DNA from: a virus
Taxonomy: Duplodnaviria; Caudoviricetes
IMG/VR virus record: IMGVR_UViG_3300025316_001101
Direction: 5' to 3' (one strand)
DNA length: 64,000 bases
Shown here: piece by piece, positions 6,108 to 55,675 of the stretch
Layout of the letters: the number at the start of each line of letters is the position of its first letter
Numbering within the stretch: the stretch's first letter is position 1
The notes under the pieces: model-generated
What the model was told of the DNA's origin: nothing
Database searches by the model: none
What the model saw: the letters and a program-made list of their open reading frames with translations, nothing else
Program-made: the position numbers and the translations under genes

Positions 6108-6530
6108 TTATTCATTAACAACACCATATTTATGAAAATATCTTAACGGCCTATATTTCACTCCATTGACCCAAAAACCCCATTTACGATAGGGTCGGCC
6201 ACACAGGAGCAAAGTCCACGCACCCTCCTTCGATATATCCAAGTAGTGCCGTTTGTCTGCCTTGGAAACCCACCAACTCCCAGCCTTCACTTCAAATCTT
6301 CCTTCTGGCGTTACATTGGTGTATTTACCCTTCAAAATAATTGAAATGAAATCACAAGCATGATCATGAAAGAACCGCTTGTCGTCGGACCTAATCCAAT
6401 GGTGAATTCGTATGGTAAAACCAAACAATAGTATGGTCCAACGATACAAATAAGGTCGCCCAGGCTCACCCAGAGCTTCCTTCCATCGAATCTGAAAAAT
6501 TTTTCCAAATGGTTTCATATCATTCTCCAA
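6108..6530 (-). CDS. cupin-like (double-stranded beta-helix) hypothetical protein
   Basis: IHHWIRSDDKRFFHDH...SIILKGKY..H motif pattern. Confidence 0.5.
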   Translation of the reverse strand: MENDMKPFGKIFQIRWKEALGEPGRPYLYRWTILLFGFTIRIHHWIRSDDKRFFHDHACDFISIILKGKYTNVTPEGRFEVKAGSWWVSKADKRHYLDISKEGAWTLLLCGRPYRKWGFWVNGVKYRPLRYFHKYGVVNE

Positions 6531-6533
6531 AAG

Positions 6534-6685
6534 TCAGCGGTGAAGGACTCGAACCCCCGACCTCCGTGTAGTAGGCTCTGATACCCGGTGTAACTCGCTC
6601 CTGCTGCATTTGCAACCACAGCAATCGCTCGTAAGAATTCGTATCTTCGCCATCACGGTGCTCCAACCAACTGAGCTAACCGCCG
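6534..6685 (-). ncRNA. tRNA-like RNA with an 85-nt structured insert in place of the anticodon loop
   Basis: acceptor CGGCGGT/ACCGCTG, D-arm GCTC-AGTTGGTTG-GAGC, stem CCGTG/CACGG enclosing 6569-6653, T-loop TTCGAGT. Confidence 0.8.
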
Positions 6686-6689
6686 TCAG

Positions 6690-6763
6690 CCGGAAGTAAA
6701 GGATTTGAACCTCTATACCTACAACTTGCGTTGTAGTGCTCTAACCAATTGAGCTAACTTCCG
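6690..6763 (-). ncRNA. anticodon-less tRNA mimic (GCAA tetraloop)
   Basis: cloverleaf with anticodon arm CTACAAC-GCAA-GTTGTAG. Confidence 0.85.
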
Positions 6764-6835
6764 TCAACGAGAATGGACTTGAACCACCGACCTCCTACAG
6801 GTTTTGTAGGTGCTCTTTCACTGAGCTACTCGTTG
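6764..6835 (-). ncRNA. tRNA-like RNA with non-canonical anticodon loop
   Basis: CAACGAG/CTCGTTG acceptor; CCTACA-AAACC-TGTAGG arm lacking U33 and purine 37; T-loop TTCAAGT. Confidence 0.8.
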
Positions 6836-6839
6836 TCAG

Positions 6840-6913
6840 CCGAAGGTAAAGGACTCGAACCTCTATCCCTACAACTTGCGTTGTAGTGCTTTAGCCAATT
6901 AAGCTAACCTCCG
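6840..6913 (-). ncRNA. anticodon-less tRNA mimic (GCAA tetraloop), paralog of 6690-6763
   Basis: same CTACAAC-GCAA-GTTGTAG arm; compensatory changes in acceptor and D stems. Confidence 0.85.
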
Positions 6914-6916
6914 TTG

Positions 6917-6943
6917 ATCCGCCCGGCTTTGCCGGGCGGATCT
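6917..6943. terminator. perfect hairpin GATCCGCCCGGC-TTT-GCCGGGCGGATC
   Basis: 12-bp inverted repeat right after the stop of the 6953 ORF; terminator or processing stem. Confidence 0.6.
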
Positions 6944-6952
6944 TACAATCTT

Positions 6953-7438
6953 TTACTCCTCAAAATATTTCTTCGCTTCTTCATAAACTGCATTCACGGA
7001 ATATTCCAATTCCTTGTAATTCAAATCAATCCACTTTCCATCGCTCTTGCGAGCCATGCGATGCAAATTAAATTGAATCCCATGATTAACGTCATCAGGA
7101 TTTGCTTTAGGCATACGGGCATTCTTGTATGCTGCAATAATATTCAAATCATCGACAGCATTATGTAACACTCTGCCCGGTCTGGGAACAAATACTGAGC
7201 AATATATCGGTTCCGGGATAGGCCGATTGCTCCGCACTTTTTTATCAGTCTTATTGAGTCGGGGTTCCCAATAGAACTTATTCTTGGGTTCTTTTACATT
7301 CCAGCGATACCAACGGGCATAATCTTTCAACGTCTGGTAATACCACTTGTGAAGCTTCTTGAGCTTCAGATATGTTTCGTAATCACACGGATAAAATCCG
7401 TATTTACCTTCATTAACCATTTGCATGACAGCACTCAT
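6953..7438 (-). CDS. hypothetical protein
   Basis: ORF track; GAAGGAG RBS before the ATG at 7438. Confidence 0.6.
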   Translation of the reverse strand: MSAVMQMVNEGKYGFYPCDYETYLKLKKLHKWYYQTLKDYARWYRWNVKEPKNKFYWEPRLNKTDKKVRSNRPIPEPIYCSVFVPRPGRVLHNAVDDLNIIAAYKNARMPKANPDDVNHGIQFNLHRMARKSDGKWIDLNYKELEYSVNAVYEEAKKYFEE

Positions 7439-8345: not shown

Positions 8346-9059
8346 TCAACTCCTGGCCAAATAATTTTTCTGAAGAGCGTCCTTTGACCACAATTTCCCC
8401 TGAACGAATCCATGTCGCACCATCTTAAAACGATGGGTAATCCAGCGATTATCCTTGCTAACCTTGATGTAAATACCTTCCCGTGGTTCCTTAGTCGTAA
8501 ATGGCGACGGTTGGAGAGTGAACTCCTCAATTTGGGGGTAATTCTCTACTGGGCCACTCCAAATCAACGGCACCAAATCAAATCCACAGACAGACAACAT
8601 CTCTCTGGCTTTGTCCGTCCTTACGAACTGCCCTTCGGCATAATCATAAAGATCATAGGCCACAAACCAGCCGGGTAATTTATCGTACTCCAAACCATGC
8701 TGGGCCACCATCCACTCGCCATAAACAGAAGCGTTTGGATAAACCCCTTCCAGAGCCTCAAAAAAATCCTGATGATCGTAAAACCAATTCCAAATCGCAA
8801 CAAATTGTCTCTTGGCTGGAGTGTCCTTTTGAAAACCCTTCTTGAGAATGTGATCCCGATTACGAATTACCGGATGTCCATCAATAAGAGCCATACCACA
8901 ATTCGCACCATCGATCTTCTCCTCAACATAAACATGCGGGAGTTGAAAAATGATGTCAGCGTCGTTTGCCGTTAGGTCGCCTCGCTGAGTGTTTGGCTTC
9001 CAAGGTAAATGCAACGTCCGAGGAAATTCCGGCAATTTGTGAAGGTTCTTAGGTTTCAT
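8346..9059 (-). CDS. ATP-dependent RNA ligase (Rnl1/Rnl2-type nucleotidyltransferase)
   Basis: FPRTLHLP, motif I EEKIDGAN, VYGEW, FVAYDLYD, EGIYIK, RFKMVR. Confidence 0.88.
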   Translation of the reverse strand: MKPKNLHKLPEFPRTLHLPWKPNTQRGDLTANDADIIFQLPHVYVEEKIDGANCGMALIDGHPVIRNRDHILKKGFQKDTPAKRQFVAIWNWFYDHQDFFEALEGVYPNASVYGEWMVAQHGLEYDKLPGWFVAYDLYDYAEGQFVRTDKAREMLSVCGFDLVPLIWSGPVENYPQIEEFTLQPSPFTTKEPREGIYIKVSKDNRWITHRFKMVRHGFVQGKLWSKDALQKNYLARS

Positions 9060-11227: not shown

Positions 11228-11301
11228 CCCGTTTGGTGGGACTCGAACCCACGACATGCGACTTTAGAGATCGCCGCTCTAACCAACTGAGCTACAAACG
11301 G
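11228..11301 (-). tRNA. amber suppressor tRNA (anticodon CTA)
   Basis: canonical cloverleaf CCGTTTG/CAAACGG, GCGAT-CT CTA AA-GTCGC, T-loop TTCGAGT, G73. Confidence 0.9.
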
Positions 11302-11659: not shown

Positions 11660-11778
11660 TGGCCAAGACAGGAATCGAACCTGTATACTCTAAGTTTGTC
11701 GCAATGGCTTACTATGAACAAAGCTCACGCTTTGGACCCCCAACTCCACCTAAAGTTTTACCATTAATATACTCGGCC
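11660..11778 (-). ncRNA. tRNA-like RNA with a ~54-nt insert in the anticodon loop
   Basis: acceptor GGCCGAG/CTTGGCC, T-arm ACAGG-TTCGATT-CCTGT, D-loop AATGGTA, stem TTAGG/CTTAG around the insert. Confidence 0.65.
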
Positions 11779-55577: not shown

Positions 55578-55582
55578 ATAAG

Positions 55583-55675
55583 TGGTGGGGGCTGGGATCG
55601 AACCAGCGATCTTCAGGTTATTCTAGGGCTTGTCTGAGCCAAGAGCCTGACGAGATGCCTCTTCTCCACCCCACG
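55583..55675 (-). tRNA. initiator-type tRNA-fMet(CAT) with a 21-nt insert at anticodon position 34/35 (55622-55642)
   Basis: CGTGGGG start with C1:C72 mismatch; TCAGG-CTC[TTGGCTCAGACAAGCCCTAGA]ATAA-CCTGA. Confidence 0.8.

Follow-up and report, generated by a model that had tools for sequence, protein, structure and literature searches.

A tRNA-shaped gene of a jumbo phage carries a conserved structured arm in place of the 5' part of its anticodon loop

Ever since the Lak megaphages were described, interrupted tRNA genes of giant phages have been a puzzle, and one locus of the IMG/VR virus record IMGVR_UViG_3300025316_001101 poses it again: is a tRNA-shaped gene whose anticodon stem encloses 85 nt the precursor of a decoding tRNA, or is the enclosed RNA itself what is being maintained? 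The window, by which we mean the whole stretch of 64,000 nt that was analysed, represents the reverse strand of the 259,024-bp record (GC 41%), and the gene in question, here called T, lies with its neighbours on the minus strand of the window, to whose positions all coordinates refer unless stated otherwise. Given its size, its about 50 tRNA genes and its tmRNA (transfer-messenger RNA) gene, the record belongs to a jumbo phage from lake metagenomes. The initial annotation had proposed that T uses a tRNA body as a natural scaffold for a structured RNA cargo. We favour a related reading, to which we assign about half of our belief, namely that T is a non-decoding stable RNA that is processed like a tRNA and carries a lineage-specific cargo arm, possibly with recognition by valyl-tRNA synthetase (ValRS).

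The tRNA body of T, on which the proposal was based, is intact and under selection. T extends over 152 nt from C1 (6685) to the discriminator A73 (6534), i.e. 6534..6685, and Infernal aligned the Rfam tRNA model across its full length (38.6 bits, model positions 1-71, E 1.7e-6 in a search of 801 nt), with 83 nt of the anticodon loop outside the alignment. The 5' strand of the acceptor stem, CGGCGGU (6679..6685), pairs with ACCGCUG (6535-6541) to form 7 bp including C1-G72, G2·U71 and G3-C70. It is followed by U8-A9, a D arm with the stem GCUC/GAGC and a 9-nt loop, an anticodon stem of CCGUG (6654..6658) paired with CACGG (6564-6568), the variable loop AGGUC and a T arm (6542..6558) in which GGGGG and CCUUC enclose the loop UUCGAGU and form two G·U pairs. 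Thus, a 7-bp acceptor stem, a D arm and a T arm with a UUCRANU loop are all present, and their pairs are kept in the ortholog described below. CCA is not encoded, and CUUUU stands directly 3' of A73.

The anticodon stem (6658-6654 with 6568-6564) encloses exactly 85 nt (6569..6653), the length previously given, and the GGC/GCC and GATAC/GTATC helices and the internal hairpin noticed earlier are all present in the minimum-free-energy fold of this insert. Both this fold and the consensus fold contain a rod domain of 78 nt (6574..6651) with GGC/GCC at its base. Following two free nucleotides (AU), GGC 6651-6649 pairs with GCC 6576-6574, and a 3x3 loop separates this helix from GAUAC 6645-6641 paired with GUAUC 6584-6580. 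Above an 8x8 internal loop, AC/GU, GC/GC and an 8-bp helix form a continuous stack with a tandem G-A loop at each of its two junctions. An apical loop of 8 nt closes the rod, the apical hairpin covering 6624-6601. On its 3' side the rod is followed by the unpaired sequence UACUA (6569..6573), a remnant of the 3' part of the anticodon loop (positions 34-38 when counted from the 3' stem strand) whose first three letters, UAC, form a valine anticodon and whose last two are U37 and A38. It is kept in the orthologous loci L008 and L014 and in the related locus L043. In other words, a 78-nt rod takes the place of the first two nucleotides of the loop, and the 3' UACUA is left as a bulge. With its several G-U pairs, the rod is specific to the RNA of the minus strand. 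The insert has a calculated fold energy of -25.6 kcal/mol, which corresponds to z = -1.9; of 1000 dinucleotide shuffles, 4.5% were at least as stable. For the whole 154-nt stretch the z-score is -0.6.

Selection on the rod is apparent from a comparison with an ortholog of 16% divergence, which was first met as a Logan contig and then as L008 and L014 through the cluster of a neighbouring protein and a pattern scan of metagenomes, the latter yielding L014 only. L014 is identical to L008 in T. The L008 copy differs from T at 20 of 152 positions, 14 of them in the insert, two in the D arm and four in the T stem. The latter four amount to two compensated pairs (G·U to U-A and G-C to C-G), one pair of the D stem becomes G·U, and the consensus fold of both whole genes comprises 45 pairs, none of which is broken. 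Nine of the 14 substitutions in the insert fall on paired sites, and yet all 20 pairs are retained: both sides have changed at 6642/6583 (A-U to G-C), 6627/6598 (C-G to U-A) and 6619/6606 (G-C to U-A), whereas the one-sided changes at 6649, 6618 and 6608 are switches between G-U and G-C. Random substitutions of the same kinds spared all 20 pairs in only 0.9% of trials (permutation test, P = 0.009). Unpaired nucleotides of the insert changed at 5 of 45 sites and paired ones at 9 of 40. The apical loop GUUGCAAA (6609..6616) with the palindrome UUGCAA (6610-6615) and the 5' side of the internal loop, GAAUUCUU (6633..6640), with the palindrome GAAUUC (6635-6640) are unchanged; the opposite side of the internal loop (6585-6592) carries a single change. 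Compensated pairs and conserved loops together identify the rod as an RNA structure selected on the minus-strand transcript, and the assumption that the insert is a structured domain is thereby borne out.

The two palindromes are the best-conserved unpaired parts of the insert, and the presence of two such palindromes is near chance expectation. Judging from their sequence, they could mediate dimerisation through loop-loop contacts.

Further copies of T were identical in three other lake metagenome runs, and a strain in run X5 differed only by 6567 T>C, by which a pair of the anticodon stem becomes G·U and is kept. No homolog of T was found among INPHARED phages by blastn or in IMG/VR with two exact patterns of its tRNA, and the upstream protein P0002 as query likewise returned no homolog from IMG/VR. 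Candidate intron-less alleles that skip about 95 nt proved to be unrelated tRNA genes of other organisms which match the D and T arms and have anticodon arms of their own. That T is a decaying tRNA pseudogene with a junk insertion is scarcely credible. Its non-canonical loop and the variable cargo of its relatives would be expected from decay, whereas stems are compensated in both body and insert, the gene is unchanged in the three other samples and its family is spread over many huge phages.

The insert resembles no RNA family that we searched for. An Rfam scan of 6300-7100 with E values up to 10 gave no family match within it, and the group I intron model (Intron_gpI) did not match anywhere in the same range, the 85 nt comparing with about 200 nt or more in group I introns. 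The initial annotation had also suggested a search for complementarity, which revealed no target above chance: in the phage genome the longest complementary match to the insert is 12 nt and no antisense target stands out. Exact 11-mers common to insert and phage genome number 17, compared with 9.4 +/- 4.1 for shuffles. A 41-codon frame that opens with an ATG in the insert and continues through to the tRNA 3' end was considered as a coding sequence and dismissed, the ATG being AAG in L008.

Does T decode? ARAGORN in intron mode annotates T as tRNA-Ala(GGC), placing an intron of 78 nt at the canonical position 37/38 so that the loop reads A32-U33-GGC-G37-A38. The earlier statement that no splice register provides both U33 and a purine at position 37 is therefore not strictly correct, and this register is ruled out only by the ortholog comparison and the 3:70 pair. 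In L008, U33 is replaced by A and C36 by U, so that GGC becomes GGU and the anticodon would turn into one for threonine; both substitutions instead fit the GGC/GCC helix. Pair 3:70 is G-C, the alanine identity pair G3:U70 is absent (the wobble sits at 2:71), and the genome has a canonical tRNA-Ala(GGC) gene elsewhere. Because U33 and C36 mutate in the ortholog, the alanine reading is contradicted and we give it practically no weight.

The evidence points to valine instead. Directly ahead of the 3' stem strand stands the heptamer CCUACUA with UAC in the correct register, and unrelated metagenome tRNA genes that match the arms of T are nearly all tRNA-Val genes (TAC/CAC). From the in-register UAC, A73, G45 and these matches it follows that T derives from a tRNA-Val by replacement of the 5' part of the anticodon loop. 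However, its Val(UAC) registers combine U37 with either C33 or A33. The conserved 7-nt loop with U33 and a purine at position 37 that characterises a decoding tRNA is missing, the loop of T measuring 85 nt. The genome contains canonical tRNA-Val genes for UAC (two uninterrupted copies), GAC and CAC, all of them with G1-C72. Since two of them read UAC without interruption, decoding does not need T.

The identity set of ValRS comprises A35, C36 and A73 as well as the minor elements G20 and G45 (PMC9976931). T has A35, C36, A73 and, within AGGUC, G45; position 20 is U. As A35, C36 and A73 are the main identity elements, the body of T may be bound or even charged by ValRS, a possibility towards which we remain somewhat doubtful. 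The retention of N-A-C and A73 in the family described next indicates that the body is more than a neutral chassis. Neither this retention nor the in-register valine anticodon of T had been noticed in the initial annotation.

T belongs to a family that we followed through a census of 70 IMG/VR loci encoding a cupin homologous to the product of the gene downstream of T, mostly on contigs of 100-675 kb. At 47 of these loci a tRNA-like gene with C1-G72 and A73 occurs on the strand of the cupin gene within 1.5 kb, and in 39 of the 47 cases it precedes the cupin gene, often with 0-60 nt between its end and the start codon. Genes of this kind with at least 100 nt are present at 35 of the loci. The signature C1-G72/A73 was found in 35 of 49 tRNA-like calls of at least 100 nt near the cupin gene compared with 14 of 90 shorter calls. 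Counted from the 3' stem strand, A35-C36 is present in 21 of the 35 C1/A73 members with at least four stem pairs; most exceptions are ordinary tRNA-Pro/Lys genes or have poorly parsed stems of three to four pairs. All four nucleotides occur at position 34, and neither U at position 33 nor a purine at position 37 is a constant feature. The T arm GGGGGTTCGARTCCTTC (in RNA letters GGGGG, UUCGARU, CCUUC) recurs in many of the IMG/VR relatives. Their inserts measure between roughly 70 and about 160 nt, replace the 5' half of the loop and fold into rods or branched arms. No 8-mer is common to the inserts of three or more lineages, and Rfam with E values up to 1 detected neither a family nor a group I match in them. 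Compensated pairs were also observed in the insert of a second lineage (L046/L055/L063). On six short contigs with a cupin homolog (L015-L017 and L019-L021) no tRNA-like gene was found. We found no description of such a family in the literature that we searched, so that a valine-derived C1-G72 family with variable arms and linkage to a cupin gene is apparently undescribed.

A number of genes share the acceptor strand of T, CGGCGG followed by G or U. L037 has a loop of 6 nt (AUACAU), which effectively seals the arm, L023 a loop of 9 nt and L043 a loop of 12 nt in which UACU is paired with AGUA. L024 (905-1077 of that locus) has a loop of about 8 nt, and its large insertion, about 100 nt long, sits in the D-loop and not in the anticodon arm. 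In T and L008 85 nt are enclosed and in L001 126 nt. All of these genes are located upstream of the cupin gene, which follows immediately in L037, in L001 and in the window. N-A-C is present in all of them and a normal 7-nt loop in none; UAC is sealed in a helix or tetraloop in L043 and L037. The lack of a 7-nt loop throughout this group is the strongest argument that the T lineage is non-decoding, irrespective of whether the insert is excised. The group also displays the variable cargo in a constant scaffold that had been named as a sign in favour of the scaffold idea: genes with the same acceptor and T arm enclose 6, 9, 12, 85 or 126 nt without common sequence.

Several observations weigh against our reading, and some of them support splicing. 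T might be a precursor of tRNA-Val(UAC) from which a nuclease removes 76-78 nt and which an Rnl2-type ligase reseals to give a decoding tRNA. The conservation of the insert would then mean that splicing proteins need it or that it masks the anticodon until phage enzymes arrive. An Rnl2-type RNA ligase is indeed encoded at 8346-9059, 1.7 kb upstream of T. Four tRNAs of the genome carry inserts of 21-22 nt whose removal restores perfect 7-nt loops, so some excision pathway probably operates in this system. About half of the wider family, including L040, L054, L002 and L006_2, has a canonical N-U-NAC-R-N heptamer at the 3' end of the insert, and such relatives could, by their sequence, be true intron-bearing tRNA-Val genes. 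Splicing would also account for the retained UAC, A73 and Val-like body of T, for the almost exclusively valine-type tRNAs that match its arms and for the retention of N-A-C in the family, and enigmatic introns have been reported in Lak megaphage tRNAs. Independent of splicing, neither a binding partner nor a target of the rod was found, the fold-energy z-score of the insert is only modest, the covariation in the insert comes from two distinct alleles, and the absence of G20 and the presence of G2·U71 count against valylation.

On the other hand, excision from T would leave AU-UAC-UA (AA-UAC-UA in L008), with U37 and a position 33 that is not conserved, and the insert-free genes with the T acceptor have loops of 6, 9 or 12 nt rather than 7. 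Neither a tRNA splicing endonuclease (PF01974) nor RtcB was found in the 259-kb, possibly incomplete record. The junctions do not form a bulge-helix-bulge motif of two 3-nt bulges around a 4-bp helix, since 2x5 and 3x3 loops flank the 3-bp GGC/GCC helix, and two canonical tRNA-Val(UAC) genes already exist in the genome. Overall, we regard protein splicing of T as unlikely on balance and nevertheless as the main rival of our reading.

The four tRNAs with short inserts, Lys-CUU, Leu-UAA, Val-UAC and Arg-UCU, are otherwise canonical; one is located at 55582-55675 (minus strand) and three outside the window at genome positions 5204, 209999 and 226755. The inserts in the Lys, Leu and Arg genes look related, each with a stem of 4-5 bp, the loop CAGUCA, AAGUCA or CAGACA, respectively, and an A-rich tail. 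Their sequences suggest a class of small protein-spliced introns.

If T is a non-decoding RNA with a cargo arm, as we favour, the array to which it belongs would be transcribed as a single precursor, and RNase P, a 3' nuclease and the CCA-adding enzyme would trim T like a tRNA. The product would be an RNA of about 155 nt with protected ends, as in an engineered tRNA scaffold. The rod with its conserved loops would be the working part, which most likely would bind a protein or pair with another RNA in the tRNA or RNA-repair biology of the phage.

The array itself supports a non-decoding role, as its other members are non-canonical too. T is the last of four tRNA-shaped genes in tandem, the other three occupying 6690..6913. 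Genes A (6840-6913) and B (6690-6763) have sealed anticodon arms, each consisting of a 7-bp stem and a GCAA tetraloop. Gene V (6764-6835) has the 7-nt loop AAAACCU with A33 and C37, and both are conserved in L008. In this ortholog B is missing, the sealed arm of A is shortened to 5 bp and a 3-nt loop, and V reads AAGACCU, while the cloverleaves are intact. Between the array and the upstream gene, a GC-rich hairpin without a U-tract (6917-6942, minus strand) is retained in L008, where the change 6926 G>C is compensated by 6932 C>G.

Downstream of T, the cupin gene (6108..6518) encodes a protein of 136 aa that matches PHROG 4786 'cysteine dioxygenase' (E 2.8e-30) and for which AlphaFold yields a model with a pLDDT (predicted local distance difference test) of 91. 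Small metal cupins are the best fold matches of this model. Hundreds of homologs share 65-84% identity and an invariant His/Asp cluster (HHW..DD..HDH..H). A functional link between cupin and RNA is possible in light of this genomic arrangement. One form of it would be that T acts in cis on the cupin mRNA, either as tRNA punctuation or as a protein-bound operator, and determines where the message begins, how stable it is or how it is translated, the arm being secondary. This would agree with the ribosome-binding site of the cupin gene, a GGAG that starts 7 nt past A73, and with the family member upstream on the same strand at 39 of the 70 IMG/VR loci, often at a distance of 0-60 nt. Near the phage Ro60 gene, an insert-bearing tRNA-like gene also directly precedes hairpins resembling Y RNAs. 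Such a role would, however, leave the compensatory upkeep of the 78-nt rod, its conserved loops and N-A-C unexplained, the RNA lies downstream of the cupin gene in L006 and L018, and an HNH gene intervenes in L008. We therefore consider it quite improbable. The intervening open reading frame of L008 (1433-2014) has two CxxC...HxxxH (HNH-like) motifs, and by its sequence it resembles the gene of a free-standing homing endonuclease bordering on the tRNA-like array.

A more far-reaching form of our favoured reading would unite RNA and cupin in a so far unrecognised RNA-protein module of huge freshwater and soil phages, a proposal that is speculative and that we think rather unlikely to hold in full. 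It would consist of a valylatable non-decoding chassis (C1-G72, A73, A35-C36), a variable arm and the cupin. The chassis would recruit RNase P, the CCA-adding enzyme, ValRS and perhaps EF-Tu of the host. The arm, evolving fast and specific to each lineage, would replace loop positions 32-33 and engage changing host or phage targets, for instance as a decoy in conflicts over tRNAs. The cupin, thiol-dioxygenase-like and highly conserved, would be the protein part, encoded next to the RNA.

The genome also encodes a TROVE protein (Ro60) and handles resembling those of the Y RNAs YrlA and YrlB, which raises the question whether T is a hybrid of tRNA and Y RNA whose insert serves as docking helix for Ro60. 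The insert sequence CGAAUUCU agrees in seven of eight letters with CGAAUGCU of the handle. However, the YrlA/YrlB covariance models match only the tRNA-like parts of the array and not the insert (E up to 10), the 3' half of the handle (CUUGUC beside the lower stem) is absent, the register of the lower stem does not fit and the Ro60 gene is 60 kb away. A docking role is thus very improbable, and a Ro60 handle in the insert was rejected because only the 5' half resembles the handle GAAUGC ... CUUGUC. At the Ro60 locus itself (L022, genome 126.4-129.6 kb), the TROVE/Ro60 gene is followed by a tRNA-like gene of 129 nt with a 61-nt insert, a minimal YrlA-like hairpin 4 nt further downstream and a YrlB-like RNA.

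Other unusual genes accompany T and its relatives. Within the window, a second interrupted tRNA body (11660-11778, minus strand; Rfam 32.4 bits) has an insert of about 56 nt, the acceptor strand GGCCGAG (G1-C72) and A73; GAC is in register if its stem has 6 bp, and it has no sequence in common with the 85-nt insert. Two tRNA(CUA) genes of amber-suppressor type are located at 11228-11301 (window, minus strand) and at genome positions 210663-210736. One or two CUA tRNAs are often found directly upstream of family member and cupin gene in related loci (L041, L045, L047 and L004). The gene after the cupin gene in L012 (2637-4552) encodes a protein of 790 aa with the shoulder and repeat domains of the major vault protein (Pfam MVP_shoulder; Vault_3 weak).

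With regard to the puzzle of interrupted giant-phage tRNA genes, the interruption at this locus is a selected RNA structure at a fixed site, the 5' side of the loop. The gene keeps the nucleotides that ValRS reads and loses those that the ribosome needs, and one chassis with differing arms occurs beside a conserved cupin in dozens of huge-phage contigs. If T is not spliced, nature would have arrived at the tRNA-scaffold trick and phages would possess a family of tRNA-shaped effectors; if it is spliced, a protein-based route of tRNA splicing so far undescribed in viruses that infect bacteria would exist. Both outcomes would be new biology.

Among known systems, the introns of Lak megaphage tRNAs, described as 'enigmatic' and reported for isotypes such as Phe, Gly, Thr and Tyr (Devoto et al., bioRxiv 10.1101/356790; PMC6784885), share with T an insert in the anticodon region of a huge-phage tRNA that matches no ribozyme and is conserved between related genomes. 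T differs from them in being Val-like with C1-G72, in the non-canonical loop that excision would leave and in having insert-free orthologs without a normal loop.

The closest analogies are plant-virus tRNA-like structures, Y RNAs, tmRNA and the engineered tRNA scaffold, and T fails to qualify as a member of any of these four on a defining feature. Valine-type tRNA-like structures (TLS-Val) of plant viruses are likewise non-decoding viral tRNA mimics with A35 and C36, and their valylation tolerates large stem-loop insertions. However, TLS-Val forms the 3' end of an RNA genome and has a pseudoknotted acceptor, whereas T is a free-standing gene encoded in DNA with a normal 7-bp acceptor stem. In YrlA Y RNAs (RF02553) a tRNA-like module is joined to a long irregular helix at the position of the anticodon stem as in T. 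The topology is the opposite, since both ends of the Y RNA lie within the long helix and its acceptor is closed, and T has no detectable Ro60 handle. In tmRNA, too, a tRNA-like domain bears a large structured insertion where a tRNA has its anticodon arm, and the molecule is charged through acceptor or identity elements without decoding. T lacks its G3:U70 and its pseudoknots as well as a frame for a tag, the ATG with which the insert starts having been lost in L008, and the Rfam tmRNA model gives no match at T, the tmRNA of the genome being a separate gene. Phage T4 produces two stable RNAs, species 1 and 2, of about 140 nt that are not tRNAs and are co-transcribed and processed with the phage tRNAs. 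Finally, the engineered tRNA scaffold described by Ponchon and Dardel (PMC3753655) resembles T in that the anticodon stem is extended into a foreign structured RNA, and only by analogy with it would tRNA-type end processing and stability be expected of T. Unlike this construct, T is a natural member of an evolving gene family that keeps the N-A-C-N-N bulge and carries its insertion on the 5' side of the loop.

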